From a virus, in IMG/VR virus record IMGVR_UViG_3300033075_001734, positions 1 to 51,691 of that record: 51,691 nt of DNA. One strand, written 5' to 3'. The translations under genes and the position numbers were made by a program. How positions within the stretch are numbered: the first letter of the stretch is position 1; every line of letters begins with the position of its first letter. The notes beneath the pieces were generated by a model. That model was given only the letters and a program-made list of their open reading frames with translations, was not told the origin of the DNA and did no database searches. Shown here piece after piece: positions 1 to 44,802 of the stretch.

Positions 1-27
1 TTGATATATTATGCATAGGAGCATGTA

Positions 28-6150: not shown

Positions 6151-6163
6151 TTAGTAAGGTATT

Positions 6164-7164: not shown

Positions 7165-7653
7165 ATGGCTGAAACACTAGACGTAACATCAATGATCCCA
7201 AACAATTTCGAATCAAAGCGAAAAAATCGTTTTATTCTTATGATAGAAGGAATTGATGCTTACATCGTCAAAAAAGCAAGTCGTCCAAAGATTTCAACTG
7301 CACCAATTGCAATTGATTTTATGAATGCACAAAGATTCGTCGCGGGCAAAACAACGTTCGGAACAATGTCAGTTTCTCTTCACGAACCAATTGCACCTTC
7401 GGGAGCACAACAGGTTATGGAATGGATTCGTTTACACTACGAATCTGTATCTGGTCGTTCTGGGTATGCTGATTTCTACAAACGTGACATTCAATTAAAA
7501 CTCGTAGATCCAGTCGGAACTGTTGTTGAATTCTGGGATGGAAAAGGCGCCTTAATTACAGAAGCCGATTTCGGTGATTTAGATTATTCAGCAGGTGATC
7601 TTGCTGAAATTAACTTAACAATTCAATGTGACAATTGGGTTCTTCAGTACTAA
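7165..7653 (+). CDS. Putative tail tube protein (162 aa)
   Basis: Its size and its position just downstream of the sheath genes match T4 gp19/P2 FII-type tubes. The RBS is acggagaa. No diagnostic motif could be verified by eye. Confidence 0.45.
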   Translation: MAETLDVTSMIPNNFESKRKNRFILMIEGIDAYIVKKASRPKISTAPIAIDFMNAQRFVAGKTTFGTMSVSLHEPIAPSGAQQVMEWIRLHYESVSGRSGYADFYKRDIQLKLVDPVGTVVEFWDGKGALITEADFGDLDYSAGDLAEINLTIQCDNWVLQY

Positions 7654-9417: not shown

Positions 9418-9435
9418 TTATTAATAATTACTTTC

Positions 9436-10536
9436 ATGACTTCTTCTTTAAATCTTCTGCGTGAATATCTCAGATTGATTTTGATTTCTGAAGGTAAGGT
9501 CGAAGACCTCGCCAAGCAGAATCCCAATATTCCTGTCATAGATCTCGCTTCTTCAGATTCAACTCCGACAAAAAAGCTTCTTCCGTGGATGGTGAAACAA
9601 GTTTCCAAAGGTGCTGACGTGGAACACGTCAGATCTGTTGCTTCTCGTTTTGCAAAAGATGGTTCTAGACTCAAGAACAAAGACATAAACTCTTATTCTG
9701 AAATTGATGAATTGGAATCTGTGCTTGATGCACTCGGTGCATCAAAGCGTTCAGAAACAATTCAGGCAAAATCAGGTGCAGTTAAGATTTATGAAGACGA
9801 CGCCTGTACTGTTTTAAGAATCGACACAAAAGAAGCTGCACAACAATATGGAAAAGGCACCAAGTGGTGCATCACAATGGAGAAGCAACAACACTATGAA
9901 ATGTATAAAGCTTCAAACGTGTTGTTCTATTACGTTCTGAGAAAAGAACCACTGAGTGATGATCTTGATAAAGTTGCTCTTGCAGTGTCGAGAGATAAAG
10001 ATAACTTTATTCAAAAAATTCAGGCTTTTGATCAAGCTGATAAAGAAATGACGCCTGATGTTGTGAGTGCACAAGCACTCACAACAGTTAAATCCGATGT
10101 CAAGTCTCAACCAAAAGCCTTTCTTGCTAGAATAAAATCAGGTGATAAATACAGTGATGAGGAATTATTTAGCTATTGGGAAAACCTGGGAACAGAACAA
10201 AACAAAATTGCATTTCTGTGTTCTACAGATCTAATCAAAAAAGAAAAACTTCAGAAACTTCTTTCAGTTGAAAATGATGAAGAAATGAAAGAGATTCTTT
10301 CAGATATGATTTCTGGGAAAGCAGAGATTAAATCTGATTATGTTATATGGCGTAATTCAGCAGGACAACTTCATCGAGACAATGATCAGCCTGCAATAAT
10401 TTATTCTGACGGATCAAAAAAATGGTATCAAAATGGAAAACTGAACAGAGACAATGATCAACCTGCAATAATTTTTGCTGACGGATCAAAAAAATGGTAT
10501 CAAAATGGTCTTGAATATGTTCCTAAGAAAAAGTGA
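9436..10536 (+). CDS. Multicopy family protein, copy A (366 aa): N-terminal helical domain, conserved WCIT core, two C-terminal HRDNDQPA/WY-NG repeats
   Basis: It is one of five paralogs (copies A-E; A-D all lie within 9436..24622, E is at 43099..44802). The N-terminus is MTSSLNLLREYLRLILISEGKVEDLAKQNP. The core is SGAVKIYEDDACTVLRIDTKEAAQQYGKGTKWCITM...NVLFYYVLRKEP. The C-terminus carries the repeats QLHRDNDQPAIIYSDGSKKWYQNGKLNRDNDQPAIIFADGSKKWYQNG. Confidence 0.7.
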   Translation: MTSSLNLLREYLRLILISEGKVEDLAKQNPNIPVIDLASSDSTPTKKLLPWMVKQVSKGADVEHVRSVASRFAKDGSRLKNKDINSYSEIDELESVLDALGASKRSETIQAKSGAVKIYEDDACTVLRIDTKEAAQQYGKGTKWCITMEKQQHYEMYKASNVLFYYVLRKEPLSDDLDKVALAVSRDKDNFIQKIQAFDQADKEMTPDVVSAQALTTVKSDVKSQPKAFLARIKSGDKYSDEELFSYWENLGTEQNKIAFLCSTDLIKKEKLQKLLSVENDEEMKEILSDMISGKAEIKSDYVIWRNSAGQLHRDNDQPAIIYSDGSKKWYQNGKLNRDNDQPAIIFADGSKKWYQNGLEYVPKKK

Positions 10537-10586
10537 TAAATTTGCATTTTATTAATGTTATTTTCCTACATATCTTTTAGGAATAA

Positions 10587-13500
10587 ATGACTATTTCAAA
10601 AGAAGAACTATCTGAGCAACTATTAATTACGCAGAAAATGACGTCTGCTATCGAAATGATGGCAAAGTCAATGTCTAAGATTGAATCTTCTTATGACACA
10701 CAGATTGCCGCAGTTGAAAAATTAACAACTGCAATCGGTAAACTTAAAGGTGAAAACCTTGAAGAACTTGACAAAACAAAGTTCACAAATCTTCAATCTG
10801 AATTTGATAAAACTGAAAAAAATGTAACAAGTTTCTCAGAAAAATTACGTGAAGTTGGAATTAATGTTGGTACGAAGTTTGTTAAACACACGTCTATAGG
10901 CGTTGCTGCATTAAGTGGTTTCGGTAGAGGAATAATCAACATACTTGCATTAGGTAGAAGTACCGCGAGTTTTTTTGCAAGTTTTGTTGATGGCGCTTTA
11001 AGTATTGGCGCCGCGATTATTTCTATTCCATTCAAGATGTTCAATGGGCTTGTTGATATGGCTGCCGCAGCAGGAGGCGGGTCAAATGAGCTCGCGCTGG
11101 CGATTGAACATCTTCGCGACGAGATGGGTAACTTAAAAGAGTCAGGTTCAAAAGCCGTTCTTGATACTGCAAAAACATTTAAAAACTTTGGTGAAACAGG
11201 ACTAAGTGTTTGGCGTGTTTTTGGATCAGTTGCTGAAAGACTTGAAACAGTCATAAAAGTTGCAACTTCAATGGGAGCAACGTTTGGTGTTCTTAAAAAT
11301 GAATTCGTTGAAAACGGTGGTGCCTTATTGGCATATCAAAAAGGTCTTGGTGTTACTGACGAACAAATGAAAGGTCTTGGCGATACGGCACTTATGATGG
11401 GTAAACCAATGTCCCGTATATTTCTTGACATGACCAAACAAACCCTTGCCCTTGGAAAAGCGTTTGATATCGATCAAAAACTTATCGGCAAAGATATGAC
11501 GAAAGCGCTTATCGATGTTGGACATTTTGGTGGCGCTACTGTTAAACAAATTGGTGTTGCGTCTGTTTATGCTCGTAAATTGGGTCTTGAACTTGATAAA
11601 ATCGTTGGAACGCTTGATTCATTTGAAACATTTGATTCTGCCGCTGAAAATGCTGCAAAATTATCACAGGCTTTCGGCGTATCAATTGATGCTTTCAAAA
11701 TGATGGAAGCACAAAGTCCTGCAGATCAACTCGATATGTTGCGAACATCATTTAGAAACGCAGGAGTTGATGCTTCAACATTTTCAAGACAACAATTAAA
11801 ACTACTTTCAACTTCAACCGGGTTGAGCGCCGAAACAGTTAAACAAGCATTTTCAGCAAAAAACTATGGAACTTCACTTGATTCAGTAAACAAAAAAGCA
11901 GATGCAGCCGAAAAGAAAACAATGTCTCAAGCTGAGGCAATGAACCAACTTGCTGACAGCATTAAACGTTTAACGCCTTCGGGAGGATCTCAACTTGGTG
12001 GTTTCTGGGAAACATTTGTTCACGGTTTCATGGGTGGTGTTCAAGCAACAAAAGAATTCCGTGACATAATCTGGAATATTAAAAGAAGTTTAAGAGAAAC
12101 AGAACTTCAAGGCGTCAGATTAGGCCGGGCATTTGTTGCAGCATTTCCTGGTATGAAAGAGTTCTTGGGTGGAATTGGTGATTTCTTTAAACCCGCAAAA
12201 TTTAAATCACTTGCGTCAGGAGTTGTTGATGTTTTTATTAACTTCATGGAAAAGTTAAAAAGTGGTCCTGCGTCTTTTGGTGATCTTATGAAATCACTGC
12301 AAGATCAGTTCTTTAAATTCTTTGATGCATCATCACCAGCTAGTCAAAAAATGATGGAAGGATTTAAGACTGTTTTAAGAACTATTTCAAGTATAGTGTC
12401 GCAAGGTATTGTTTGGGTCTCAACGAAAATTGCTGATGGTGTTGATTTTATATCTGATGTGTTAAGTGGAAATGTTGATTTAGGTAAACTGAGTAATTCT
12501 GGCTCAGAAGGTCTTGGTTTTATTTGGAACATTTTGGAACCCATGATTAAATCACTTGGAAAGGCTTGGGATCTATTATATCCAGCACTTAAGCATCTTT
12601 TTTCAATTGCCCTTACAAAATTATGGACATTCTTAAAATCTGACACAGTAACTGGGCCTTTAAAAGAATATGCACCCCACATTGCCGCTATATTGTTTGG
12701 ACCAGCATTATTACGTGCTCTTATGGCTTCAGGTGGTTGGGCATTAGGAGAAGCAGCAAAAGGCTTATTTTCTAAGGGTTCAAGCATTATGAAAGGCGTT
12801 GCAGATAAAGCCGAGAAAATGAATGAAGCCGGATCTACGCTTAAGAAAGCATCAAAAGGAAGTGATGCAGCTGAAGGAATTTCAAATGCTGCAAAATCTT
12901 CAAAAGCAGCAACTGAACTTGATAAATCTTCAAAATGGGGTGTCGAAGAGGCTGCAAAATTAGGTCTTAAACTTATTGCAATGGCTGGTGCTCTTTCATT
13001 AGGTGGAATAATGATGGCCTATGCGGTTGTTAAAATGTATGACGTGTTAAAATCGGGAGGAATCGTATCGTATAAAGACGCTGCTGCTCCATTATTGGTT
13101 TTGGGAGCAATGGTAACTGCTGCTGTTCCATTAATGTTTGCACTTAAGATTGCAGCAAATGCTGGAAGTCCTAGCGAAGTTGCAAAAGGCGGCGCGCTAA
13201 TTGCTTCAGGATTGTTAATCGTAGGTGGTGTTGGATCAATGCTAACTTATGTTTTGAACCAAGTTGGATCACCTGCAGAATTAAGTGCAGCTGGCAAAAT
13301 GATGGGAATGATGACGCTTGTGTTTCTTGGTATGGTTCCTTTGGTTTTAGGAGCGATGGCCGTCGGCGCAGTCGTTTCTGCTTCGGGTGGAACTGCCCTT
13401 GCGGCGGCAGCAGTTGGTATGGCGACAATGGGAACTGCCGTTGGGGCAGTTGCGACATTGGCGACAGTAATAATTGCTGAACTTAGAGGTATGACAATTG

Positions 13501-14903
13501 AAGCTGGATTTCAGACGAAGATTGATGCATTTTTAAGTATCATGAAAACTATACAGACATTTTCTGATACGCTTGTAAGTCTTGTAAGTTTAATGACACC
13601 ATCAATTGCCGAATTGGTATCAGGAAAAACAAAGACATTTACTGAAAAGGTAAATGCAACCATTGATATGATGAAGGAGATGATTGGTGTTTCAAATACG
13701 GGAACTGGTATCATCGGAATTGTTGAAACTGTTGTAACACAAATTAAGTCATTGTCTTCATATGCCGGAATTGGTGAATCAGCAAAAATCTTTGCTGATG
13801 TTTTAACTGCCGTGTCATCAATTATGCAATACATGACACCTAATCCTGAATTCATGAAAGCGCAAACAAGTTTATTAGGAATTGCAAGCAAACATCTTTT
13901 TGGTGATGATGTTGCAAAGTCAACAACTGATTATGTTAAGTTAATGACTACAACTGTTAAACCGATTATGAACAGTGTAATCGAATCAATGAAAGAACTG
14001 TTGAGTATATCTGTTCCTGATGTTACAAAAGCTCAAGCTCTCGGGAATTTATTAAATACGGTTTCAGGAATTATGAAAGGCATTATGCCTGATCCTGCAT
14101 CATTAAAAGCATTTTCAACAACAGCAAAAGCAGGTATCGGACCGATTGGAACAGAAATAGGTTCACTTGACGCTAGTGGTCTTGCAACGTTTATAGGATC
14201 ATATGCAGAAAAACTTGGAACTTTAATCCCAGCTCTAACGAGTGGAATATTAAACGGGTTAGCGAATAGTGTTGGTTCGTTTGATAAGTCAAAGATTGAA
14301 AGTCTTACAAAGACAGCTGATATATTAACTTCAACGGCAAATTTCATTAAATCAATATCTGACATAAGTAAAATGGACTTTTCAACAAGCAATGAATCAG
14401 AAACTGTAATTCAAAGAATGGTAACATCAATTGATAAAATCATAAGTGAAGAATCAATGAAAGGTATATTTGAAACTTCGGGAAGAATTTCGAAGTACGG
14501 CGTAGCTTTAGGCGCAATTGGAAAAACAATTACGAATAATGGTATAGTTCAAGCCCTCGCCGCCGTGGGAGATATGGTTAAACAAACGCAAATGCTTGAT
14601 GATGCATTAAACGCAGGAACTGAAATTAACGTCGATGCAAAACTTCAGAAACTTGCTCAAGTTACAGGAATTGGTGGAAAGTTTGCGTATACTGTCCAGA
14701 GCAAGGAAGTTGTCATAAATCTTAACATGCAAATTTTCATGGACGTCGCTGAAACAGAAAAAGTTCTTATCATGAACAAAAAATCAATTATTCGTGACAG
14801 ACTTAATTTTGCAACTAATACACCTAATGAAAAAGGACAAAATGTAATTCCTGAAGAGTATCAAAAAATCTTGCCTAATGTTAAACCCGATGGAGCTCCA
14901 TAA
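10587..14903 (+). CDS. Tail tape measure protein (1438 aa)
   Basis: It is very long, with a coiled-coil N-terminus and a central run of Gly/Ala-rich hydrophobic segments (LIAMAGALSLGGIMMAYAVV, MMGMMTLVFLGMVPLVLGAMAVGAVV ...) typical of tape measure proteins. It lies downstream of the chaperone-like region of a contractile-tail module. Confidence 0.65.
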   Translation: MTISKEELSEQLLITQKMTSAIEMMAKSMSKIESSYDTQIAAVEKLTTAIGKLKGENLEELDKTKFTNLQSEFDKTEKNVTSFSEKLREVGINVGTKFVKHTSIGVAALSGFGRGIINILALGRSTASFFASFVDGALSIGAAIISIPFKMFNGLVDMAAAAGGGSNELALAIEHLRDEMGNLKESGSKAVLDTAKTFKNFGETGLSVWRVFGSVAERLETVIKVATSMGATFGVLKNEFVENGGALLAYQKGLGVTDEQMKGLGDTALMMGKPMSRIFLDMTKQTLALGKAFDIDQKLIGKDMTKALIDVGHFGGATVKQIGVASVYARKLGLELDKIVGTLDSFETFDSAAENAAKLSQAFGVSIDAFKMMEAQSPADQLDMLRTSFRNAGVDASTFSRQQLKLLSTSTGLSAETVKQAFSAKNYGTSLDSVNKKADAAEKKTMSQAEAMNQLADSIKRLTPSGGSQLGGFWETFVHGFMGGVQATKEFRDIIWNIKRSLRETELQGVRLGRAFVAAFPGMKEFLGGIGDFFKPAKFKSLASGVVDVFINFMEKLKSGPASFGDLMKSLQDQFFKFFDASSPASQKMMEGFKTVLRTISSIVSQGIVWVSTKIADGVDFISDVLSGNVDLGKLSNSGSEGLGFIWNILEPMIKSLGKAWDLLYPALKHLFSIALTKLWTFLKSDTVTGPLKEYAPHIAAILFGPALLRALMASGGWALGEAAKGLFSKGSSIMKGVADKAEKMNEAGSTLKKASKGSDAAEGISNAAKSSKAATELDKSSKWGVEEAAKLGLKLIAMAGALSLGGIMMAYAVVKMYDVLKSGGIVSYKDAAAPLLVLGAMVTAAVPLMFALKIAANAGSPSEVAKGGALIASGLLIVGGVGSMLTYVLNQVGSPAELSAAGKMMGMMTLVFLGMVPLVLGAMAVGAVVSASGGTALAAAAVGMATMGTAVGAVATLATVIIAELRGMTIEAGFQTKIDAFLSIMKTIQTFSDTLVSLVSLMTPSIAELVSGKTKTFTEKVNATIDMMKEMIGVSNTGTGIIGIVETVVTQIKSLSSYAGIGESAKIFADVLTAVSSIMQYMTPNPEFMKAQTSLLGIASKHLFGDDVAKSTTDYVKLMTTTVKPIMNSVIESMKELLSISVPDVTKAQALGNLLNTVSGIMKGIMPDPASLKAFSTTAKAGIGPIGTEIGSLDASGLATFIGSYAEKLGTLIPALTSGILNGLANSVGSFDKSKIESLTKTADILTSTANFIKSISDISKMDFSTSNESETVIQRMVTSIDKIISEESMKGIFETSGRISKYGVALGAIGKTITNNGIVQALAAVGDMVKQTQMLDDALNAGTEINVDAKLQKLAQVTGIGGKFAYTVQSKEVVINLNMQIFMDVAETEKVLIMNKKSIIRDRLNFATNTPNEKGQNVIPEEYQKILPNVKPDGAP

Positions 14904-14911
14904 TTACTTTC

Positions 14912-16090
14912 ATGACTTCTTCTTTAAATCTTCTTCAAGAATATCTCAGATTGATTTTGATTTCTGAAGGCAAGGTCGAAGACCTTGCTAAACAGAATCC
15001 CAATGTTCCTGTCATAGATCTCGCTTCTTCAGATTTAACTCCGACAAAAAAGCTTCTTCCGTGGATGGTGAAACAAGTTTCCAAAGGTGCTGACGTGGAA
15101 CACGTCAGATCTGTTGCTTCTCGTTTTGCAAAAGATGGTTCTAGACTCAAGAACAAAGACATAAACTCTTATTCTGAAATTGATGAATTGGAATCTGCGC
15201 TTGATTCTTTGGGAGCGTCAAAACGCTCTCAGGAAATTCAGGCAAAATCAGGTGCAGTTAAGATCTATGAAGACGACGCATGCGTCGTCTTAAGAATTGA
15301 CACAAAAGAAGCTGCTCAACAGTATGGAAAAGGCACCAAGTGGTGCATCACAATGGGGAGGCAACAACACTATGAAGAGTACAAAGCTTCAAACGTGTTG
15401 TTCTATTACGTTCTGAGAAAAGAACCACTGAGTGATGATCTTGACAAAGTTGCTCTTGCAGTAATGAGAGATGAAAAAAACGTTGTGAAACAAGTTCAGG
15501 CTTTTAATCAAGCTGATAAAAAAATGACACCTGAAAATGCGAGTGTGAGTGCACAAGCACTCACAGCAGTTAAATCAGATGTCAAGTCTCAACCAAAAGC
15601 CTTTCTTGCTAGAATAAAGTCGGGTGATAAATACAGTGATGAGGAATTGTTTAGCTATTGGGAAAACCTGGGAACAGAACAGAACAAACTTTCATTTCTG
15701 TGTTCTGAACAGTTAAACGAAAAAGATACGCTTCGAAAACTTCTTCAGGTTGAATCTGACAAAAAAATGAAAGAAATTCTTTCAGATATGATTTCTGGGA
15801 AAGCAGTTTCTTTTTATGATGGAATTAAATGGAAAAATAAAAACGGTCAACTACACAGAGACAATGATCAACCTGCAGTGATTTATTCTGACGGATCAAA
15901 AGTTTGGTATCAAAATGGTCAACGTCATCGAGACAATGATAAGCCTGCAATGATTTATGCTGATGGATCAAAAGAATGGTATCGAAATGATCTACTTCAT
16001 CGAGATAATGATCAACCTGCAGTGATTTATGATGATGGAACAAAAGAATGGTATCGAAATGGTCTTAAATACGTTCCTAAGAAAAAATGA
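14912..16090 (+). CDS. Multicopy family protein, copy B (392 aa), four C-terminal repeats
   Basis: It has the same N-terminal and core sequence as copy A, with four HRDNDxPA...WY.NG repeats. Its ATG is 8 nt after the tape-measure stop, within the shared 'TAATTACTTTC-ATG' junction. Confidence 0.7.
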   Translation: MTSSLNLLQEYLRLILISEGKVEDLAKQNPNVPVIDLASSDLTPTKKLLPWMVKQVSKGADVEHVRSVASRFAKDGSRLKNKDINSYSEIDELESALDSLGASKRSQEIQAKSGAVKIYEDDACVVLRIDTKEAAQQYGKGTKWCITMGRQQHYEEYKASNVLFYYVLRKEPLSDDLDKVALAVMRDEKNVVKQVQAFNQADKKMTPENASVSAQALTAVKSDVKSQPKAFLARIKSGDKYSDEELFSYWENLGTEQNKLSFLCSEQLNEKDTLRKLLQVESDKKMKEILSDMISGKAVSFYDGIKWKNKNGQLHRDNDQPAVIYSDGSKVWYQNGQRHRDNDKPAMIYADGSKEWYRNDLLHRDNDQPAVIYDDGTKEWYRNGLKYVPKKK

Positions 16091-16150
16091 TAAGTAAACA
16101 ATAGGAATTTATATGAAAGATAAGAATCGTTAATTAATTGAAAGTATATA

Positions 16151-19100
16151 ATGTCAGGTACAAAAACAGGAACAGGCGGGTTTGAAATTGATAACAAAAC
16201 GTACAGTTTTGATCCTGGTGATCCGTCTTCACCTGGACAAGAACCGATACAAACAGATCGTGGCGATATAATTGTTGATCATACTCCTAAAGATCTTGGA
16301 AAGAAAACTCGTGCAACGCTTGGGAAATATTTAAGCGATGTAACAAAAGGTGAAGCTGGTTCTAACACACGAAGATCAAACACTTTTACCGTGGATCCTC
16401 CAAGATCATCTGAGCAACCTGATGAAATAATGTTATCTGACGACAAGGGAAATCCTATTAAATTAACGCCATCACCAAATTCATCACAGTTTTCAAGAGA
16501 ATCTGCCGAACATGATAATCGGGGGGTTGTTTTTGATTCACCTGATTTAAAGTCATGGTCTCAAACAATTTCCAATCCAAGAACTGAAATTCACGATAAA
16601 AACATTAGTGGACATACACTTTTACCCAGCGTGGGAAAAGACAAAGTTCCAGCTCCAATTGAATCGTATAGAAAGACAGTTTTAAGAGCAAATCGTTTTT
16701 CTTCAGTAGATCGCATGTCAAATGACAAGACATATAAAATCAAAGGAAGAACTTATAATGGAGCACAATTAAAACAAGTCGGCGCTATGCTTTCGCTCCG
16801 TGGAAGTCAAGAATTTCCAGCCGCGTTTAATGACAGTGTAAATCCTGTTAACGCTGGTTCTGTTGCCGGTGCAATTCTTCCAAGCCCTAATCAATTGGGA
16901 ATTCTTAAGGTTCCAAATAAATTATTACAAACTCAAGACGCTCTTGAGCATCTTGCAAATACAACAGACGAACCAATTGAACTTGAAATAGCTCCTTTGG
17001 GAAATCAATCTTGGGGAGCATTAAATAACGTTGAAGAACCTTTTGCTGGTGTTTTGAACGTCGGTATGATTGCGATGGCTCTCGCAATGCAAGCTGCAAT
17101 GATGTTAGCGTTTAAAGGTTTGGGATCTTTGATCGGATTAATGGGAAATTCAAAAGTACCTGTGAGTTCAACAAAAGATTATGCCGGAAGATATACATTG
17201 GGTGAATATTTAACTTCTCCCAATAAAGGAAAAAGTGGATTAAGTTTCCCACCAAATTTAGCTTTATTATTGGGTCTAAAAGGAACACGACATCCGTTTG
17301 ATTCTGCTTTAGATGCAGGTGCTAAAGCATTTTTTATGGGAGGAAAAACAACTACAGAAACACTTTCTTCTGCACTGTCTGATGCACTTTCAGATTCAAC
17401 TTCAGCGGGTCATTTAATTATTGTTTCACGTCTTATCATAAGAACTGGTCAATCTGTTGCGAGTGACATATCAAAAATAGGAAAAGCATTTGCATCAAAT
17501 CCTGTTAGTGGGATTAAGAGCGTTGTTAGTTTATTAGCAAATATACGTAAATCTAAGTTAATTGTAGCGATGAACTTATTTGCTACGTTAGGTGACGTTA
17601 TTTTAAGCGAATCAGATTGGGAAAAAGATCCTGAAGGTCGTGGCTCACCAATGGATGCATTCGAAGACAGCTCGCCGGGAGCTTCTATATCTAAAAACAG
17701 ATTAAAAAACAAACTCAAATTAGCGTGGGCATCGAACAGATCGCCGGCGATGTATCTTATTCCAGATTCTCTTGCGTCAATGAGTGTCACCGATACTCAT
17801 TTAGGTGGATTTAAAGGTGCTTTAGGAATTCATGATCCTGATACGAAATCAAACATTATCGTTCAAAGTATGAATGATAAAGAAAATGGCACAAGGATTG
17901 CAAGGAACTCAAAGAAACCTGATCAAATTGATGTTGTAAAAATGGAGGCATTACTTGAATCTGAATATATGCCATTTTATTTTCATGATTTACGAACGAA
18001 TGAAATCATTTCATTTCATGCATTTATGGCATCTTTGTCTGATGATTTTACGCCGACCTGGGAAAATGTAGAAGGTTTTGGTCGTGTTGAACCTGTGAAA
18101 ATTTACAAAGGAACACAACGTAAAATTGGAATGAGTTTTTATGTTGTTTCAACGAGCGAAGAAGACTTTGATGAAATGTGGGTAAAAATAAATAAACTTG
18201 TTACGCTCATTTATCCACAATATACCAAAGGAAGAACACTTCAAAGCGAAGATTCAAAATACAAATTTACACAACCCTTTAGTCAACTTGTGGGTGCAAG
18301 TCCACTCATAAGAATTCGTCTTGGTGATCTGTTTAAATCAAATTATTCTAGATTTGCGCTTGCTAGATTATTTGGTGCAGCAGATAACGATATGAAACTT
18401 AATGATCAAAATATAAAATTTGAAGGTGTAACAAAAGAAGATTTAGATAAGGTTGTTAATGACGCAAAAGCAAACCCCACTACAGTATATAAACTTAGCT
18501 TCGGTGGTTGGAAAAGACAAGAAGATGGGCCTGGTTCTTCTGAACCTCCTTATGCAGAAACGCTTAACGTTGATTATGGTGATTTACATTATTTTAATTT
18601 CAAAATAGTTAAACAATCGGCAATTAAATCACCAACTAACTTAAGTGGTTCTGATGTTATTGTAGAAACATTTTTAATGACGCCTGATGATATGATTAGA
18701 GAATTTGGTTATGATAAAAAGGAAGCGTCAAAAAATCATTATAGGTTGGGTTATAAATACGGTTTTTCCGGAAATCCAAAAACTAGAGTTATATCCGCAA
18801 AATATATTGTTCCTCGAGGTGCATTAGTACCTGATAGAAATTCATTAAACGTTGCGTTTGCAGCAAACAACAAAATAAACCAAAATAAAACGAACATTGA
18901 TGAACTTTCAAAATTTTTAAGCGAAAAAAATGCCCTTGTTAAATCGTTCAGTTCAGTTCAAGGTAAAGGTTTGGCAGGAGTAATTGATTCATTGAATTTT
19001 GATTGGTATGATAAAATTACATGGGAAATAAAACCTGGCAGCAAAGCGCCTAAAATGTGTAAAATAACTCTTGGATTTTCTCCTGTTCATGATATTTCAC

Positions 19101-19198
19101 CGGGAATTGATCATTTTGGCTATAACAGAGCACCTGTGTATAACGTCGGTGGTCTTATGGGTCAAGGATATGACAGTGATGGGAAGAAAGAAGAGTAA
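16151..19198 (+). CDS. Large putative tail/baseplate structural protein (1015 aa)
   Basis: The call rests on position (immediately after the tape measure region in a tail module) and size. No motif was recognised. Confidence 0.3.
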   Translation: MSGTKTGTGGFEIDNKTYSFDPGDPSSPGQEPIQTDRGDIIVDHTPKDLGKKTRATLGKYLSDVTKGEAGSNTRRSNTFTVDPPRSSEQPDEIMLSDDKGNPIKLTPSPNSSQFSRESAEHDNRGVVFDSPDLKSWSQTISNPRTEIHDKNISGHTLLPSVGKDKVPAPIESYRKTVLRANRFSSVDRMSNDKTYKIKGRTYNGAQLKQVGAMLSLRGSQEFPAAFNDSVNPVNAGSVAGAILPSPNQLGILKVPNKLLQTQDALEHLANTTDEPIELEIAPLGNQSWGALNNVEEPFAGVLNVGMIAMALAMQAAMMLAFKGLGSLIGLMGNSKVPVSSTKDYAGRYTLGEYLTSPNKGKSGLSFPPNLALLLGLKGTRHPFDSALDAGAKAFFMGGKTTTETLSSALSDALSDSTSAGHLIIVSRLIIRTGQSVASDISKIGKAFASNPVSGIKSVVSLLANIRKSKLIVAMNLFATLGDVILSESDWEKDPEGRGSPMDAFEDSSPGASISKNRLKNKLKLAWASNRSPAMYLIPDSLASMSVTDTHLGGFKGALGIHDPDTKSNIIVQSMNDKENGTRIARNSKKPDQIDVVKMEALLESEYMPFYFHDLRTNEIISFHAFMASLSDDFTPTWENVEGFGRVEPVKIYKGTQRKIGMSFYVVSTSEEDFDEMWVKINKLVTLIYPQYTKGRTLQSEDSKYKFTQPFSQLVGASPLIRIRLGDLFKSNYSRFALARLFGAADNDMKLNDQNIKFEGVTKEDLDKVVNDAKANPTTVYKLSFGGWKRQEDGPGSSEPPYAETLNVDYGDLHYFNFKIVKQSAIKSPTNLSGSDVIVETFLMTPDDMIREFGYDKKEASKNHYRLGYKYGFSGNPKTRVISAKYIVPRGALVPDRNSLNVAFAANNKINQNKTNIDELSKFLSEKNALVKSFSSVQGKGLAGVIDSLNFDWYDKITWEIKPGSKAPKMCKITLGFSPVHDISPGIDHFGYNRAPVYNVGGLMGQGYDSDGKKEE

Positions 19199-19203
19199 TT
19201 CTA

Positions 19204-19497
19204 ATGGCATTCAGTAGATACACAAAAACACCTAAACTCAATTTCGGCGCCCAAGTGGGAACTTCAAACATAATTCCTATTATGCGAGCCGCGATTAAAA
19301 ATGGGTCACTTCCAGTGAAAATAACCATACTTCGGGGCGCAGAAAGACTTGATACAATGGCTGGCTCAATTTATGGTGATTCTCGTTATTGGTGGATTCT
19401 TGCTGCATCAAGTGATATAGGTTGGGGGTTACAAGTTCCTGCTGGGACTATAATTAAGATTCCCGATTTATCTGACGTAATATCGTTGACTAGTTAA
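19204..19497 (+). CDS. Phage tail protein X-like / LysM-like small protein (97 aa)
   Basis: The segment ITILRGAERLDTMAGSIYGDSRYWWILAASSDIGWGLQVPAGTIIKIP fits the P2 gpX/LysM pattern (GDTL...YGD..W..I..AN.L....L..G..L.IP). Its context is baseplate-like. Confidence 0.45.
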   Translation: MAFSRYTKTPKLNFGAQVGTSNIIPIMRAAIKNGSLPVKITILRGAERLDTMAGSIYGDSRYWWILAASSDIGWGLQVPAGTIIKIPDLSDVISLTS

Positions 19498-19509
19498 TAA
19501 TTACTTTCA

Positions 19510-20691
19510 ATGACTTCATCTTTAAATCTTCTTCAAGAATATCTCAGATTGATTTTGATTTCTGAAGGTAAGGTCGAAGACCTCGCCAAGCAGAATCCCA
19601 ATATTCCTGTCATAGATCTCGCTTCTTCAGATTCAACTCCGACAAAAAAGCTTCTTCCGTGGATGGTGAAACAAGTTTCCAAAGGTGCTGACGTGGAACA
19701 CGTCAGATCTGTTGCTTCTCGTTTTGCAAAAGATGGTTCTAGACTCAAGAACAAAGACATAAACTCTTATTCTGAAATTGATGAATTGGAATCTGCGCTT
19801 GATTCTTTGGGAGCGTCAAAACGCTCTCAGGAAATTCAGGCAAAATCGGGTGCAGTTAAGATCTATGAAGACGACGCATGCGTCGTCTTAAGAATCGATA
19901 CAAAAGAAGCTGCACAACAGTATGGAAAAGGCACCAAGTGGTGCATCACAATGAGCGAAGAACAACACTATGAAGAGTACAAAGCTTCAAACGTATTATT
20001 CTATTACGTTCTGAGAAAAGAACCTTTAGGAAATAATCTTGACAAAGTTGCTCTTGTTATGATGAGAGATGAAAATAATTCTGTTCAACAGATTCAAGCT
20101 TTTGATCAGGCTGATGAAGAAATGACACCCAAAAAAGCAGGGGTAAGTGCACAAGCACTCACAGCAGTTAAATCAGATGTCAAGTTTCAACCAAAAGCCT
20201 TTCTCACTAAAATAAAGTCGGGTGATAAATACAGTGATGAGGAACTCATCACATATTGGTCACAACTAGGAACTGAAAAAGATAAACTTGTATTTCTGTG
20301 TTCTGAACAGTTAAACGAAAAAGATACGCTTCGAAAACTTCTTCAGGTTGAATCTGAAAAAAAAATGAAAGAAATTCTTTCAGATTTGATTTCTGGGAAA
20401 GCAGTTTCTTTTTATGATGGAATTAAATGGAAAAATTCAGCAGAACAACTTCACAGAGACGATGATCAACCTGCAGCGATTTATGTTGACGGATCAAAAG
20501 AATGGTATCGAAATGGTCAACGTCACAGAGATAATGATCAACCTGCAGTGATTTATGTTGATGGAACAAAATATTGGTATCGAAATGATCTACTTCATCG
20601 AGATAATGATCAACCTGCAATAATTTATAGCGACGGAATAAAACGTTGGTATAAAAATGGTCTTGAATACGTTCCTAAGGGAAATAAATGA
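19510..20691 (+). CDS. Multicopy family protein, copy C (393 aa), four C-terminal repeats
   Basis: It shares a 259-nt tract that is 100% identical with copy A (19537..19795 vs 9463..9721). Its 3' half is near-identical to copy B. Confidence 0.7.
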   Translation: MTSSLNLLQEYLRLILISEGKVEDLAKQNPNIPVIDLASSDSTPTKKLLPWMVKQVSKGADVEHVRSVASRFAKDGSRLKNKDINSYSEIDELESALDSLGASKRSQEIQAKSGAVKIYEDDACVVLRIDTKEAAQQYGKGTKWCITMSEEQHYEEYKASNVLFYYVLRKEPLGNNLDKVALVMMRDENNSVQQIQAFDQADEEMTPKKAGVSAQALTAVKSDVKFQPKAFLTKIKSGDKYSDEELITYWSQLGTEKDKLVFLCSEQLNEKDTLRKLLQVESEKKMKEILSDLISGKAVSFYDGIKWKNSAEQLHRDDDQPAAIYVDGSKEWYRNGQRHRDNDQPAVIYVDGTKYWYRNDLLHRDNDQPAIIYSDGIKRWYKNGLEYVPKGNK

Positions 20692-23567
20692 CTTTCGAAA
20701 AATTAGACGACATATTCAGAATGATGACACCCACAGATTTGATGGGTGCTCAGAAACTTTCTTTAGGAACAGACAAGAGCATTGATACGAGCCTTGCAAA
20801 AGATTTGATAAACATCATATACGGTACTTCAGGTGCAAGAACAGTTGATCAAATTAGTAAAGATTTAACAACGTTTAGTGCCAAGGCGGAAGAAGCATCA
20901 CAACTTGAACAATTTAAGCGTATTATTCAGTTCTATAAAACAGGCGCGTCTTGTACGGCTTTTGGTTCAGCACCTTTTATTGCAATGGGTTCATCTGGAA
21001 AAGATCCTGTTAATAATGTTACGTTTGAACAAATCATCGGAACTGATATTAAATTAAATGATGTTAAACCATCAAAATCAATGGGAATAATGTTGTGTAA
21101 TTCTGGGTTTATGAGCCCAGCAATAAGAAATTCAGAAAAAGTTGAAAAATTTTTAAATTTCATGCCAACTATAGTCGCTTCTCGAATGATTCCATTACTT
21201 GATGTTGAATTTGCTTTTAAACGTGGTGTTCCTGAAGCAAATATATCGCAACCTCATATGTGGTCACCTGGGCTTTTAAAGTTCTTATTAGGTGGTGATA
21301 ATTCAGTTCTCAAAGATTCAGAATCACCTACATCTATATTGATTAATGCAAATGAAAAACATGGTCTCGACGGTGCGCAATCTGTATCAGGAATGGAAAT
21401 GTTTACTTCACCTCAAACATTGATTAATACAGATCCAACGTCAAACGTAGGGCGCTATGTTGACGTAATTGATCCCATGCGACCATTGATGACACTTGAA
21501 AGTTTTTCAGTGAATATCACACCTAACGTTGGTTTGTATTCATATAAGAAAGCAACTGTCGTTTTCAAATTACATGACAGATCAAGATTGTCTGAAATTG
21601 CAGATCTTATAAGACCACAGGTGTATCAAGATAAAGATTCTGCACCTACTGTTTGGATTACTTATGGTTGGAGACACCCGGTCGAGCCTGGAAATCCTTA
21701 CGCAGATTTTATCAATGAAAATATGCTTGTTAGAGATGCGTATGGAATCATAAACACTCAATTCGAATTTGATCAAATGGGTCAAGTAAACATAACATTA
21801 TCATTATGGACTAAAGGGATCCCAGAAATGAGAACGTCAAATGTTAATGGTGATGGTTCTTTGCAAATAATCAAAGATATACAAGACATTGCAAAAAAAG
21901 TTGCTCGATATAAAAATGCACTAGGAATCTCTTCGAATGGAGGCACAAATCGTGAGATTCGTGGATTTACATTACTTGAATCAGCAGAAAGTGGGACCTA
22001 TCCTTCTGAAATTTCGTCAGACGATATTAAAAAATCACTTAGTGATATCAAAACAAGCTTAAACAGTAAAGATCTAAAACTTGATCAAACAGCAGTTAAA
22101 GGTCTTATTGAACAACTTGAAAAGTTGTATAACCCAAAATATAAAGGTTACGTTAAATTTAAAGAAACACTTGAAACGCAATCAACAATAAAAACAAATG
22201 AAAAATTTCAACAGGTTATTAGCGGTGCAGATCCGTTTTTACCTTCAATTAAAAAGGACGAAAAAAGATTCATTGAATCAAAATCAGTTTCTCACCCATT
22301 AACAAGCCTAATTGAATCTATTAACGAATATTATGGTGAATCTGAAATAAAAGATTTGAAAAATCCAACGGGAACTAAAGTTAAAGGTTTTCAAAAGAAA
22401 GCAGTTTCACTTGGTAAACTAATTTCTGTGTTTATGGCAGAAGCCCTAAAATCACTTGACGGAATTGACGAATTACAATTGTATTTTTATCAGTTTAATA
22501 GTCATGCCGGAAGTTGTGCAGCAGTAAACATCGCTGAATTTCCAATCGACATGCCAGTGTTCTTAGATCAATATCGTGATCACATACAACGAAAAGGAAA
22601 TGAACGAGTTACACTTGAAGAATTTTTAAGACTTGTTATTGATTCGCAGTTACATGATTCAAGAGCAATAGGATATGGTCACAGAAAATATTTCGCTCCA
22701 TACGATCCTTCAAATAAATCACCCGCGCTAAAAAAGGGAATTCCACCTGAAAAATATGAACTTGCAAAAGGTCAGTTTATTATGCCCGCAATTGAGTTGT
22801 ATATTGAAACTGTTCAAGCATCAACATCATTATCAGAACATGATAAATTAAATCAAATTCAAACTTCTTCTGGAAATAATCGTGCAGAACAATACACAAA
22901 AATTATGAGACTTCATATTTTTGACAAGACAAATAATCCTTACAAAATAGCAGATTTATTACTGCAAGGTGACGATGAAATGTCTTTTGTTGAAGCAGAT
23001 AGTGAATATGTTAAACAACAATCGATGTTAAATAGTCTCACACCTAATGAAATCTATAATAGTCATACTGATGGCGACAAATTATTAAAAAACAAAGAAA
23101 GCAAAACCGTTAGTAATAAAGACGTTAAAACGTTTGTGTCAAAAATGGTTCCGACAATTATTCATGGAATGAACGCTTCAAGTGTTTCAAGCGCAAACTT
23201 AGCATCAAAACAAGATCCATTGTTAGCGACAGCGCAAATGCAGGCTTTGGCAAAAGGTCACGGTAAACCTCAGACTTTGTCGCCTAACGGCGCTGACGTA
23301 GGAGGTTTACCTTTAAGAATTATTCCTGCATCATTGACATTAGATTCATTAGGTTGCCCAATGTTATCTTATGGTCAAGTGTTCTTTATTGACTTTAATA
23401 CTGGAACGACTGTTGATAACATGTATCTTATGACTGGGTTGACGCACAATATTTCACCAGGGAAGTTTAGTTCACAAATGACGTTAACTTTTCATGACGC
23501 GTATGGAAAATTCTTCAGTGCACCAAAAATTACAGATTACATTAAGTCTCTTAAAGGAACAGAATGA
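20688..23567 (+). CDS. Large putative baseplate/tail structural protein (959 aa)
   Basis: The call rests on position (after the gpX-like gene) and size. It has an ATGA overlap with copy C upstream and with copy D downstream. No motif was recognised. Confidence 0.25.
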   Translation: MTFEKLDDIFRMMTPTDLMGAQKLSLGTDKSIDTSLAKDLINIIYGTSGARTVDQISKDLTTFSAKAEEASQLEQFKRIIQFYKTGASCTAFGSAPFIAMGSSGKDPVNNVTFEQIIGTDIKLNDVKPSKSMGIMLCNSGFMSPAIRNSEKVEKFLNFMPTIVASRMIPLLDVEFAFKRGVPEANISQPHMWSPGLLKFLLGGDNSVLKDSESPTSILINANEKHGLDGAQSVSGMEMFTSPQTLINTDPTSNVGRYVDVIDPMRPLMTLESFSVNITPNVGLYSYKKATVVFKLHDRSRLSEIADLIRPQVYQDKDSAPTVWITYGWRHPVEPGNPYADFINENMLVRDAYGIINTQFEFDQMGQVNITLSLWTKGIPEMRTSNVNGDGSLQIIKDIQDIAKKVARYKNALGISSNGGTNREIRGFTLLESAESGTYPSEISSDDIKKSLSDIKTSLNSKDLKLDQTAVKGLIEQLEKLYNPKYKGYVKFKETLETQSTIKTNEKFQQVISGADPFLPSIKKDEKRFIESKSVSHPLTSLIESINEYYGESEIKDLKNPTGTKVKGFQKKAVSLGKLISVFMAEALKSLDGIDELQLYFYQFNSHAGSCAAVNIAEFPIDMPVFLDQYRDHIQRKGNERVTLEEFLRLVIDSQLHDSRAIGYGHRKYFAPYDPSNKSPALKKGIPPEKYELAKGQFIMPAIELYIETVQASTSLSEHDKLNQIQTSSGNNRAEQYTKIMRLHIFDKTNNPYKIADLLLQGDDEMSFVEADSEYVKQQSMLNSLTPNEIYNSHTDGDKLLKNKESKTVSNKDVKTFVSKMVPTIIHGMNASSVSSANLASKQDPLLATAQMQALAKGHGKPQTLSPNGADVGGLPLRIIPASLTLDSLGCPMLSYGQVFFIDFNTGTTVDNMYLMTGLTHNISPGKFSSQMTLTFHDAYGKFFSAPKITDYIKSLKGTE

Positions 23568-24622
23568 ATCTTCTGCGTGAATATCTCAGATTGATTTTGA
23601 TCTCTGAAGGAAGAGTTGAAGATCTTGCTAAGAGGAATCCAAATGTAGACGTTCAAAGCCTTGCCGCAGTTGATTCCACACCTACAAAAAAGCTTCTTCA
23701 ATGGATGATTAAACAAGTGTCAAAAGGTGCTGACGTGGAACACGTCAAATCTGTAACTTCTCGTTTTATTAAAGATGGTTCTAGGCTTCCCAATAAAGAC
23801 ATATATTTTTATTCTGAAATTGATGATTTAGAAGTTGAATTAGACATACTTGGTGCATCAAAGCGTTCTGAAACAATACAAGTTAAGACAGGCGCCGTTA
23901 AGATTTTTGAAGATAAAACATGCATTGTATTGAGAATTGATACAAAGAAAGCTGCACAATTGTACGGAAGAAATACAACCTGGTGCATAACACAAGAAAA
24001 TACGGGAGATTACGAAGGTTACAAGTCTGAAAATGCGTTATTTTATTTCGTAATAAGGAAAAAGCAATTAAAAGACAATTTTGATAAAGTTGCTGTTCAA
24101 GTTGTTAGAGATGATTATAATCAAATTGATGATTTAAAATGTTACAATCAACTAGATGATCAAAATGATCCTATTTCTTCCAAATTATCTTCAGAAGTTA
24201 TTGAAAGTATTAAATTTGACGCAGAATCACAACCCTATTGTTTAAGTGATATGATTTTATCGTGGAATAATTGTAAAACTTTTTTTGCCAAAATGGTATT
24301 TTTGATTGATCGTAATTTTAGTGTAGAAGATCTCTTGTTAGAACTTTATTTAATTGAAGAAGACGAAGACGTAAAAGAAATTCTGCAAGATCTAATTGAT
24401 AAAAAAGCGTACATTGACGAGGAGTTAGATTCAATCGTGTGGATAAAAAACGGTCGATTGAATCGTGTTGGTGATAAACCTGCCTTGATCAGTGCATCTG
24501 GGAAATTTGAATATTGGCGTTCTGGAAAATTGCACAGAGATAACGACAAACCAGCTGTTATAGATGGAAGTTCAAAACAATGGTTTAAGCATGGAGTTCA
24601 ATATGAACCTAAAGGTTTGTAA
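23564..24622 (+). CDS. Multicopy family protein, copy D (352 aa), divergent, two C-terminal repeats
   Basis: It has MNLLREYLRLILISEGRVEDLAKRNPN at the N-terminus, a conserved core (GAVKIFEDKTCIVLRIDTKKAAQLYGRNTTWCIT...LFYFVIRKK) and the C-terminal repeats LNRVGDKPALISASGKFEYWRSGKLHRDNDKPAVIDGSSKQWFKHG. Confidence 0.65.
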   Translation: MNLLREYLRLILISEGRVEDLAKRNPNVDVQSLAAVDSTPTKKLLQWMIKQVSKGADVEHVKSVTSRFIKDGSRLPNKDIYFYSEIDDLEVELDILGASKRSETIQVKTGAVKIFEDKTCIVLRIDTKKAAQLYGRNTTWCITQENTGDYEGYKSENALFYFVIRKKQLKDNFDKVAVQVVRDDYNQIDDLKCYNQLDDQNDPISSKLSSEVIESIKFDAESQPYCLSDMILSWNNCKTFFAKMVFLIDRNFSVEDLLLELYLIEEDEDVKEILQDLIDKKAYIDEELDSIVWIKNGRLNRVGDKPALISASGKFEYWRSGKLHRDNDKPAVIDGSSKQWFKHGVQYEPKGL

Positions 24623-25862: not shown

Positions 25863-25878
25863 AGGAATATGTTGTTAT

Positions 25879-43098: not shown

Positions 43099-44802
43099 AT
43101 GCCTAATTCTTTAAATTTTCTTCGTGAATACCTTGAACTTATTTTGATTTGTGAAGATAAAGTAAGAGATCTTGCGAAAAAAAATCCCAGAATAAATGTT
43201 TACGTTCTCGCTGACTATGATGTTTCGCCCACAAAAAAACTCTTACCTTGGATGGTGAAACAGGCTTCTAAGGGCGCAAATGAAAATGAGATTAAGAGTA
43301 TTGCTTCTCAATTTTTTGAATATGAAGCAATGTTACCAAATAAAGACATAAATTCATATTCAACACTTGAAGATTTACAGTCTGCGTTTGATAAACTTGG
43401 ACCTTCAAAACGTTCACATTTAATTCAAATTAAGTCAGGTGCTGTTAAGATTTATGAAGACAAAAAAGATCTTGTTTTAAGAATTGACACAAAAGAAGCT
43501 GCCCAACAGTATGGAAAAGGCACCAAATGGTGCATCACAATGGAAGATGAACCACACTATGAAGAATATAAAGAAAAAAATGTTTTATTCTATTATGTTC
43601 TGAAAAAAAAAGAATATGGAAAACCTGAACTTCAAAAGGTTGCTCTTGCAGTGATTAGAAATCATAATAATTCAATACAAGAAATTCAAGCATTTGATAA
43701 TGTCGACGCGCAGATGACACCTGAAGATGCATATGTTAGTGAACAGGTTTTAGAAGCAGTTAAATCAGATGCAAAAAAACAACCTCAATCTGTGTTAGCA
43801 AAATTGAAAGCTGGAAATTTTACAGATGATGATATTAAACAAATTTGGAATTCACTGTCATCTGAACAACAGAAATATAAATTTCTAATTGCTATGGAAA
43901 ATAGAAGTCACAATTTTAATGACATATTATACACAATCCTAAAGTTGGAAACAGATCCAGATATGAAAGAAATTGTTCATGATTTAGTATATGACAAAGC
44001 TAGTGTCGAGGATGGCGAGAAAATCTGTTGGTATTCACCTCAATATGAATTGAATCGTGAAGATGATAAGCCTGCGGTGATTTATGACACAGGTACGAAA
44101 GTTTGGTATAAAAACGGATTAAAACATCGAGATAATGATAAACCCGCAGTAGAATATCATGATGGAAGAAGAGCATATTGGAAAAATGGTGTTCAATATG
44201 AATTAAAACAAGAAAATTATATAAGAACAACGTTAAAAGGTCTTAAGCGCGTATTACGTGAATATGCAAAAATTGAAAAAAACAAAGACGTATACATGAA
44301 TTCTTCTGATCCAATTGCAAAAGTAATTGAACCTGAAATTTATGACATGGTTACAAAATCTTATGCTGCCGCTGGGGGGAATGCAACAATTCATTCACCT
44401 TCTGACGTATCATCAGAATATCATAATTGGATTGTCGCTGACATTGATGATGATCCTGATATTGATGTTTTTATTGGTGCAAATGAACGCGACGGAAAAA
44501 TGAAAATTGGCGCATCTGCAACGGATGGTTCTTTGCAAGCAAAAGATTATTCAATGCAACTTAGAAAACGATTACTTTCTAACGGTTATTGGGCCGAAGT
44601 ATCAGGTGCCGTGGCACATATTGTTATGAATAAACTTGGAATTAAACCAATTGAAGATGAGAAAAAAGTTCGTTCACTTTTAAATAAAGATATCGTGTGG
44701 CATGGAAAACATCCAGAAGGTAAATTTCCTGGTACGAATGGATGGTATACTAGAAACATTGGGGGAACTGAACACATTAAAATTATTGTTGGCGACGTTT
44801 AA
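43099..44802 (+). CDS. Multicopy family protein, copy E (567 aa), divergent, with extra ~200-aa C-terminal domain
   Basis: It has MPNSLNFLREYLELILICEDKVRDLAKKNP at the N-terminus and the core SGAVKIYEDKKDLVLRIDTKEAAQQYGKGTKWCITM...VLFYYVLKKK. The repeats are NREDDKPAVIYDTGTKVWYKNGLKHRDNDKPAVEYHDGRRAYWKNG, followed by a unique C-terminal extension. Confidence 0.65.
   Translation: MPNSLNFLREYLELILICEDKVRDLAKKNPRINVYVLADYDVSPTKKLLPWMVKQASKGANENEIKSIASQFFEYEAMLPNKDINSYSTLEDLQSAFDKLGPSKRSHLIQIKSGAVKIYEDKKDLVLRIDTKEAAQQYGKGTKWCITMEDEPHYEEYKEKNVLFYYVLKKKEYGKPELQKVALAVIRNHNNSIQEIQAFDNVDAQMTPEDAYVSEQVLEAVKSDAKKQPQSVLAKLKAGNFTDDDIKQIWNSLSSEQQKYKFLIAMENRSHNFNDILYTILKLETDPDMKEIVHDLVYDKASVEDGEKICWYSPQYELNREDDKPAVIYDTGTKVWYKNGLKHRDNDKPAVEYHDGRRAYWKNGVQYELKQENYIRTTLKGLKRVLREYAKIEKNKDVYMNSSDPIAKVIEPEIYDMVTKSYAAAGGNATIHSPSDVSSEYHNWIVADIDDDPDIDVFIGANERDGKMKIGASATDGSLQAKDYSMQLRKRLLSNGYWAEVSGAVAHIVMNKLGIKPIEDEKKVRSLLNKDIVWHGKHPEGKFPGTNGWYTRNIGGTEHIKIIVGDV

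Follow-up and report, generated by a model that had tools for sequence, protein, structure and literature searches.

A multi-copy, phage-specific gene family interleaved with the tail genes of an uncultured marine T4-like myovirus

Why should a phage carry one gene in copy after copy, each wedged between the genes for its tail and its replication machinery? This question is raised by a stretch of viral DNA of 51,691 nucleotides (nt), positions 1-51,691 of IMGVR_UViG_3300033075_001734 (hereafter the window), in which five paralogous genes, called copies A to E, are spread over the tail and replication regions. The source phage is an uncultured T4-like myovirus of marine origin; the window is coding almost entirely on the plus strand at a guanine-plus-cytosine content of 32-39%, and a near-identity DNA search of cultured phages with the region gave no match, a close cultured relative being absent. 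An aquatic host is suggested by this low guanine-plus-cytosine content together with the relationships of the structural genes. The copies belong to an undescribed, very large, phage-specific and fast-evolving family, on which literature searches found no paper.

The copies and their turnover among relatives

The five paralogs are co-oriented on the plus strand, align over their full length and are connected by DNA repeat families. Identity to copy A is 84% for copy B, 80% for C, 56% for D and 53% for E; A, B and C are mutually 80-86% identical and D and E are only 53-56% identical to other copies. The tetrapeptide WCIT is invariant in all five, among 130-odd invariant alignment columns. The full-length alignment, the shared invariant columns and the DNA repeats therefore make the paralogy real and far beyond chance, and open reading frames (ORFs) and alignment agree with the first-pass annotation, made from the sequence alone, which had placed five paralogs with an invariant WCIT at these positions. 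The copies and their parts, with lengths in amino acids (aa) and scores against a hidden Markov model (HMM) of the core, are as follows.

1..27, plus strand: window edge just downstream of a sixth copy, which itself lies outside the window
9422..9735, plus strand: homogenised 5' segment of copy A, made up of a leader of about 14 nt (TAATAATTACTTTC) and the first ~100 codons, delimited by repeat families D1-D4 and the leader alignment
9436..10536, plus strand: copy A, 366 aa, core HMM 318 bits; flanked by the hub-overlapping 106-aa ORF and the 1438-aa gene
14912..16090, plus strand: copy B, 392 aa; between the 1438-aa and 1015-aa genes
15840..16064, plus strand: repeat array of copy B, 72-nt (24-aa) units, HRDNDxPA...DGxKxWYxNG beta-hairpins
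19510..20691, plus strand: copy C, 393 aa; follows the 97-aa baseplate-wedge-like gene and precedes the 959-aa gene
20448-20663: repeat array of copy C, equivalent to that of copy B
23564..24622, plus strand: copy D, 352 aa, divergent; preceded by the 959-aa gene and followed by the PolA-type polymerase gene
43099-44802, plus strand: copy E, whole ORF, 567 aa, in the replication/auxiliary region
43099..44220, plus strand: family part of copy E, residues 1-374, core HMM 295 bits
44221..44802, plus strand: ~193-aa gene fused in frame, residues 375-567 of copy E

Copies C and D are identical to the metagenomic family members P0003 and P0020, respectively. The count of five holds for the window, to which a sixth copy has to be added just upstream, between a gp15-like gene and the first sheath gene. 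Three contigs that are 98.5-99.5% identical to the window (L139, L140, L141) start in the C-terminal end of this sixth copy and show at least seven repeats there, and L001 and L002 (86% identical) carry a full copy of 391 aa at the same position; the number of repeats per copy ranges from two to at least seven. Contigs with the sheath genes are all shorter than 20 kilobases (kb; 15/15), the three that were read at their upstream end all begin inside the sixth copy, and several assemblies of the same phage break within copy C.

The first-pass annotation had suspected that at least copy A is an insertion and had proposed to look for presence/absence polymorphism at the exact junctions, and insertion is borne out by related loci. 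Of 80 IMG/VR loci collected around a homolog of the 1015-aa protein, none has a core copy within 10 kb (0/80), and the seven that were read gene by gene are collinear with the window for the hub, 106-aa, 1438-aa, 1015-aa, 97-aa, 959-aa and PolA genes. The slots of copies C and D measure only 3-50 nt in these IMG/VR relatives, and copy D is not at its junction in L007-L011, L019 and L062. Slot A holds a conserved gene of 94-115 aa in relatives and slot B, in all relatives examined, a conserved gene of 75-92 aa; neither small gene is present in the window, and therefore copies A and B stand in their place. A sister phage (L092, DNA 80-87% identical) has copies C and D, the latter as an 89% ortholog (P0019) at the same place, and retains the small gene in slot B, where window positions 14907-16116 correspond to an unrelated 75-aa ORF at L092 positions 2319-2533 between flanks that are 80-85% identical. 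The absence of B from this sister phage, and of C and D from the 80 loci, supports the view that the copies are insertions and not conserved tail components. The earlier argument that copy A interrupts an adjacency of tape-measure and chaperone genes rests on unverified annotations. In the sister phage, an extra 77-aa ORF (L092 11089-11322) lies between copy D and the polymerase gene, where the window has 28 nt, a further sign of these junctions as insertion hot-spots.

Similar differences are found at other positions and over shorter distances. The slot-A allele encodes 415 aa in strain L139, with flanks 98.5% identical, and 366 aa in the window, because two additional 72-nt repeats are present in L139. 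Near the terminase gene, L004 carries an ORF-precise insertion of 1,188 nt (copy P0007) that L003 lacks; conversely, the full copy P0015 of L003 is matched in L004 by an 82-aa in-frame remnant consisting of the first 12 and last 70 residues. On another contig (L089; JGI 3300045372 Ga0490006_000591), the copy at 6076-7128 is 94% identical to copy B at its 5' end and identical to copy C at its 3' end, and downstream or upstream genes of different origin meet in it, namely the 959-aa gene and another module on the reverse strand (gp25, NUDIX). The contig may show a recombinant genome arrangement, but as it is indistinguishable from a chimeric assembly across the repeat it was left out of the evidence for turnover. 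Judged from the remaining comparisons and from the fusion described below, the copies are shown to be gained, lost, replaced, fused and resized quickly.

The 5' segment listed above for copy A is 95-98% identical among copies A, B (14900-15211) and C (19498-19809). Synonymous divergence (dS) among these three copies is 0.07-0.12 in the first 100 codons versus 0.33-0.73 in the core, and the low 5' values therefore point to gene conversion at the 5' end. The ratio of nonsynonymous to synonymous divergence (omega) is below 1 throughout A, B and C, at 0.1-0.3 in N-terminus and core and 0.4-0.75 in linker and repeats; the copies, all intact, are by this measure shown to evolve under purifying selection. 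Each duplication comprises the ORF and about 14 nt of leader, and neither terminal repeats nor target duplications were found at the copies. No nuclease, transposase or recombinase domain was detected in them, and autonomous mobility is therefore not supported. Real homing endonuclease genes also occupy these same slots. We infer that the copies spread by the recombination machinery of the phage and not autonomously.

Copy E had been singled out as longer than the others, and this is correct; its extra length is a fused, conserved neighbouring gene of ~193 aa. At the fusion junction the DNA reads ATA where relatives have ATG, and the upstream stop is lost. The ~193-aa gene has 29 stand-alone homologs of 176-284 aa. 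In a sister contig, a 73% ortholog of copy E (P0014, 398 aa) ends with its own stop at the fusion point, and a separate ORF on that contig (P0262, 193 aa) is 86% identical to the copy E extension. The same fusion is found in P0016 (567 aa, 98.6% identical to copy E; six member sequences, two contigs). The extension was considered as an effector domain and was rejected as such, being the fused neighbour.

Protein architecture, remote similarities and distribution

An AlphaFold2 model of copy B (mean predicted local distance difference test score, pLDDT, 88) begins with a long N-terminal helix of lower confidence (residues 2-28) and a helical region (34-113), followed by an alpha/beta core with strands 115-120 and 124-129, helix 132-138, a G-K-G-T-K-W-C loop, helix 153-159 and strands 162-169, 179-186 and 192-198. 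The C-terminal half comprises a helical linker (214-295) and beta-hairpin repeats (298-387). Across the family, the conserved N-terminal module of about 230 aa consists of an amphipathic helix with an I/L-x-E-G-K/R motif, a helical bundle and the alpha/beta core. In 126 family members the N-terminal motif has L in 82%, any residue, E in 85%, G in 71% and K/R in 92%; in the window it reads I-S-E-G in copies A to D and I-C-E-D in copy E. The invariant core motif is G-x-G-T-x-W-C. In profile numbering, G138, W143 and C144 are conserved in all of the 126 members (100%), T141, K44, W48, D80, K177 and D197 in at least 95%, and F69 and Y156 in 98%, and none of the histidines is conserved among these members.

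In copies A, B and C, the codons for T-K-W-C (GCACCAAGTGGTGC) form a 14-nt palindrome (9857-9870, 15333-15346 and 19931-19944), which a terminator scan flagged on the minus strand and which is probably a coincidence of codon choice.

The repeats, given as ~23 aa in the first-pass annotation, have a period of 72 nt, that is 24 aa, with the consensus HRDNDxPA-x5-DGxKxWYxNG. Elsewhere in the family, the C-terminal partners are MORN-like, LRV/HEAT, BspA-LRR (LRR_5), LRR_8 or WG repeats, LRV/HEAT repeats occurring in 15 of 59 long members. Rare added domains are InPase (8e-28), ART-PolyVal (9e-5) and Tyr phosphatase. Some ORFs (P0121-P0132 and L124 1707-4742) contain two to five complete core units without interruption, up to 1844 aa, with an L-x-E motif preceding most units; such ORFs may encode polyproteins, or tandem paralogs may have fused recently.

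No core match was obtained for the window copies in Pfam, NCBIfam or PADLOC, and a search of PDB sequences with the core profile gave 0 matches at E<=10, in agreement with the earlier statement that the core could not be matched to a known enzymatic fold. In PHROGs, the window copies match only the unannotated families 17056 and 28193. Recurrent sequence similarity to the core is seen for just one curated family, PcfJ-like (PF14284), which is named after PcfJ of the Enterococcus conjugative plasmid pCF10. Family member P0129 reaches 30.6 bits against PF14284 (gathering score 25 bits) at residues 496-602, within its core match at 427-663. Among about 90 members scanned this is the only one to pass; three or four more align in the same register below the threshold, including P0138 (18.3 bits) and P0028 (16.2 bits), at profile positions of about 5-119. 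PF14284 did not match the five window copies at E<=1, and a tblastn search of 72,556 plasmids with the core consensus gave no match. With a single above-threshold match and several below, the core, whose fold is weakly GNAT-like in topology, is treated as a remote and divergent relative of the PcfJ-like domain and not as a member of either the PcfJ-like or the GNAT family. PcfJ and the phage family both belong to DNA-transfer elements, but the latter is viral and adds a helical part at the N-terminus and repeat arrays behind the core.

The suggested resemblance of the repeats to MORN-variant repeats stands for their shape, since they form tandem beta-hairpins in an elongated sheet as in MORN-variant proteins, but not for their scores: MORN_2 (PF07661) did not match the window copies at E<=1, and the best homolog (P0012) scores 24.6 bits, below the threshold of 29.6 bits. 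The repeats also differ from those of MORN-variant (YwqK-like) proteins in their consensus and 24-aa period.

A search of metagenomes with the core profile yielded 12,152 clusters at 50% identity with E<=1e-3, of which 8,283 have E<=1e-10 and 1,082 have E<=1e-30. Host range was scanned with a degenerate DNA motif for Y-G-x-G-T-K-W-C-I-T. Among 185,579 cellular species genomes this motif occurs once, on a 2.7-kb contig of a metagenome-assembled genome, and in IMG/VR it marks 44 stretches, mostly on contigs of 80-400 kb and often with several copies per contig. Every match in BFVD is an uncharacterised protein of a phage, and here again single phages have several paralogs. In cultured phages, tblastn with copy B found core matches in PA5oct-like Pseudomonas jumbo phages only and repeat-only matches in Celeribacter P12053L and Agrobacterium Atu_ph07; with the family consensus, PA5oct-like phages only were found.

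Genes around the copies

The genes that surround the copies, as far as they match known families, are the following.

28-3036 and 3103-6150: adjacent pair of tail-sheath paralogs, 1002 and 1015 aa
6164-6958: GIY-YIG homing endonuclease, behind the second sheath gene and ahead of the tube gene
7165-7653: gp19-type tube protein
8292-9164: T4 gp26-type baseplate hub (PF12322), overlapped by the 106-aa ORF
19204-19497: baseplate-wedge-like protein, 97 aa
24651-25862: PolA-type polymerase domain, 403 aa
27825-28781: DUF7487 gene, 318 aa, matching the PHROG homing-endonuclease families 12131 and 3339; between SSB-like and RecA/UvsX-like genes

The labels first given to the flanking genes can be verified only in part: that of the PolA domain is correct, what was labelled the chaperone region before copy A is the gp26-type hub with its 106-aa ORF rather than a proven chaperone, and the tape measure matches no family; the 1438-, 1015- and 959-aa proteins of the window were all without a family match. 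Both sheath paralogs match sheath families by their C-terminal ~400 residues only, and the pair is kept in L001, L002 and L139-L141. At the equivalent of 6164-6958, L002 has a GIY-YIG gene together with a 109-aa plus-strand ORF and a 556-aa reverse-strand ORF. The 403-aa PolA-type protein (region 24651-26469) covers only the palm and fingers of Pol I (model positions about 620-880) and is followed by an HD-domain phosphohydrolase-like ORF; a family-A polymerase alongside T4-type structural genes is unusual. The sister phage L092 lacks the DUF7487 gene; homologs of this gene occur in L008, where one occupies slot A, and in L091, upstream of the portal gene.

Relatives also encode T4-type gp13, gp15, portal, large terminase and a Peptidase_S77 prohead protease. 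The contigs L003/L091 (Logan SRR15221277_345) and L004 bear a heavy load of selfish elements: the T4-type portal gene contains three inteins (2010 aa), the Peptidase_S77 prohead protease has a LAGLIDADG insertion, and the terminase of L004 is broken by an 839-nt insertion.

Possible roles and comparison with known systems

The reading that we favour, tentatively and at a likelihood somewhat short of even, is that the copies form a late-expressed, virion-delivered accessory or effector family, by analogy with the T4 internal proteins and Alt and with the head paralogs of giant phages. Embedding in the operon, the I/L-x-E-G-K/R motif, the prohead protease of the lineage and the occasional effector fusions all fit it, and among the three roles considered in the first-pass annotation, an injected or virion-associated protein co-expressed with the tail fits best for these reasons and through the homolog in phage PA5oct. 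Copies A to C start 18, 8 and 12 nt from the upstream gene, the start of copy D shares ATGA with the upstream stop, the stop of copy C shares ATGA with the start of the next gene, and these copies are all in sense orientation. A generic promoter and terminator scan near the copies yielded nothing informative, with no salient signal in this region. The sole experimental anchor for function is PA5oct EST35_0205 (gp205, QCG76086.1), which matches the core profile at 107 bits and is annotated as 'structural protein, ESI-MS/MS' (electrospray ionisation tandem mass spectrometry), having been detected in virions (PMC7318152). Peptidase_S77 (PF03420, T4 gp21-type) was read not in the window but in the relative L091, downstream of the portal gene; at the protein level, the copies of that relative share 58-71% identity with the window copies.

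According to this scheme of virion delivery, the copies would be translated late, together with tail and baseplate proteins, and the conserved N-terminal module would steer the protein into the virion; this module may be a propeptide for capsid targeting that the T4-type prohead protease cuts after I/L-x-E. After delivery into the next host, the variable repeat array would bind a target there and the core would act on it or simply carry it. Duplication and the replacement of cassettes at intergenic hot-spots, by the phage's own recombination and with no encoded nuclease, probably generate the new copies.

Several observations weigh against virion delivery. Promoter analysis gives no support to late expression: occurrences of the T4 late-promoter motif TATAAATA show no enrichment (5 versus 3.7 expected), and none of them precedes a copy. 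Copy E lies among non-structural genes behind a strong terminator-like hairpin at 43040-43080 (GCGGCCCGAATAGGATACATTCGGGCCGC followed by a T run), which is directly upstream, and therefore copy E apparently starts its own transcription unit, unlike A to D. The link to virions is a single proteome with a single homolog, a distant one at about 26% identity, and that proteome also listed seven 'virion-unrelated enzymes' (PMC7318152). The I/L-x-E motif falls within the predicted helix 2-28 and may be just part of the fold; it is retained at the internal units of multi-unit proteins, which suits processing and structure equally. BspA-type LRR and WG repeats in some members are commoner in surface proteins, and the core is without an assignable biochemical activity.

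A rival view takes the copies for proteins of the virion surface or accessories of the tail (adhesin, decoration or fibre-like) in which the N-terminal module docks on baseplate, tail or capsid and the repeats bind extracellularly. Four copies lie among baseplate and tail genes, the PA5oct homolog was found in virions and the PA5oct authors suggested a link of their non-conserved structural proteins to the specificity of tail or baseplate (PMC7318152), LRR_5 or WG repeats are typical of surface proteins, and the repeat-number alleles resemble adhesin variation. However, fibre, collagen, Ig-like and trimerisation motifs were not found in the copies, the N-terminal module is globular alpha/beta and has a Gly-rich loop as well as an invariant Cys, HEAT/LRV and MORN repeats usually act inside cells, and fusions to InPase, ART and phosphatase suit intracellular effectors. 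Copies also lie beside the terminase gene, between gp15 and sheath and among replication genes, and their positions are not conserved between relatives. We therefore consider a surface or tail function unlikely, and the fibre or decoration role named in the first-pass annotation is weak at best, with no fibre-like domain and no fixed position in its favour.

A protein that acts in the infected cell and is not packaged, for example a host-manipulation or anti-defence enzyme of the GNAT-like acyltransferase or another Cys-dependent type, targeted by its repeats and made during infection only, would account for the invariant G-x-G-T-x-W-C, K and D residues and for a core under purifying selection with faster repeats, and MORN-variant proteins of the YwqK type are, by source annotation, immunity proteins that work through binding. 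Yet the PA5oct homolog was detected in virions and placement in structural operons is unusual for early takeover genes, and we regard such a non-packaged enzyme as distinctly improbable. A related proposal, in which the core would be an unrecognised enzymatic effector, GNAT-like with a catalytic Cys, that large lytic phages package and inject, with the interchangeable repeats as programmable targeting modules, strikes us as quite doubtful too. The proposal of a selfish or mobile family is upheld in that gain, loss and replacement are seen, and it is not supported for autonomous mobility, no nuclease or transposase domain being present. In its strongest form, a new kind of free-standing homing endonuclease whose core cleaves empty sites and whose repeats bind DNA, it would explain the presence/absence and replacement polymorphism at ORF-precise intergenic sites, where the bona fide homing genes of this lineage (GIY-YIG, DUF7487) behave alike, and the order of conserved N-terminal domain, linker and variable C-terminus mimics GIY-YIG and HNH enzymes. 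But the 126-member alignment lacks a nuclease-typical invariant His or acidic-triad pattern, several near-identical copies at unrelated flanks in one genome do not fit site-specific homing, target-site duplications and terminal repeats were not found at the copies, and a homolog is a virion protein; homing is very unlikely in our estimate.

Multiplication within one genome, displaced tail-module genes and repeat changes at ~98.5% identity point to an arms-race function, for which host takeover, anti-defence and host binding are candidates. A domain with more than 12,000 clusters that is nearly virus-only and has no above-threshold curated match in the window copies is a sizeable blind spot of phage biology. 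The near-identical 5' segments break metagenome assemblies and may cause chimeric joins, which concerns the reconstruction of such phage genomes. If virion delivery is true, the N-terminal module could be a general packaging tag of large T4-type phages, beyond the short T4 peptide; if the core were a packaged and injected enzymatic effector, each phage would hold a rapidly diversifying repertoire against host proteins or defence systems, and the family would rank among the largest undescribed families of phage host-manipulation proteins.

Known systems share parts of this pattern. The T4-type seg and mob homing genes occupy the same intergenic niches with the same presence/absence pattern among close relatives, whereas the copies described here have no nuclease domain and are many and near-identical per genome. 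Unlike polyvalent proteins (Iyer et al., 2017), the window copies consist of core and repeats only, without multiple effector domains. T4 Alt is cut at ITE-6 and LTE-619 and the internal proteins have an N-terminal targeting sequence (PMC5694885; PMC3012670), and Alt-family genes are located among baseplate genes (PMC5512222). With IPI-III and Alt of T4, the family has in common that the genes are accessory, presumably late (lateness being inferred here) and highly variable between relatives, that some lie among baseplate genes, that a T4-type protease is present in the lineage, and that a conserved N-terminus ending in I/L-x-E precedes a variable remainder, a motif that alone is no proof of cleavage. 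There is no sequence similarity, however, a folded module of 230 aa stands here in place of the 10-aa peptide of T4, and the T4 proteins, whose N-terminal capsid-targeting sequence is removed by the gp21 protease, are head-packaged and injected whereas the family here is known from genes and the PA5oct homolog. The head paralog families A and B of SPN3US and phiKZ, with 2-20 members per genome (PMC5694885), are likewise multi-copy families of unassigned function with strong copy-number variation, and in them too the N-termini resemble each other more closely than do the remaining parts (PMC5694885). They belong to another fold and family (pfam12699 was not matched by the copies) and are clustered in their genomes, whereas the copies described here stand singly, scattered between essential tail genes.

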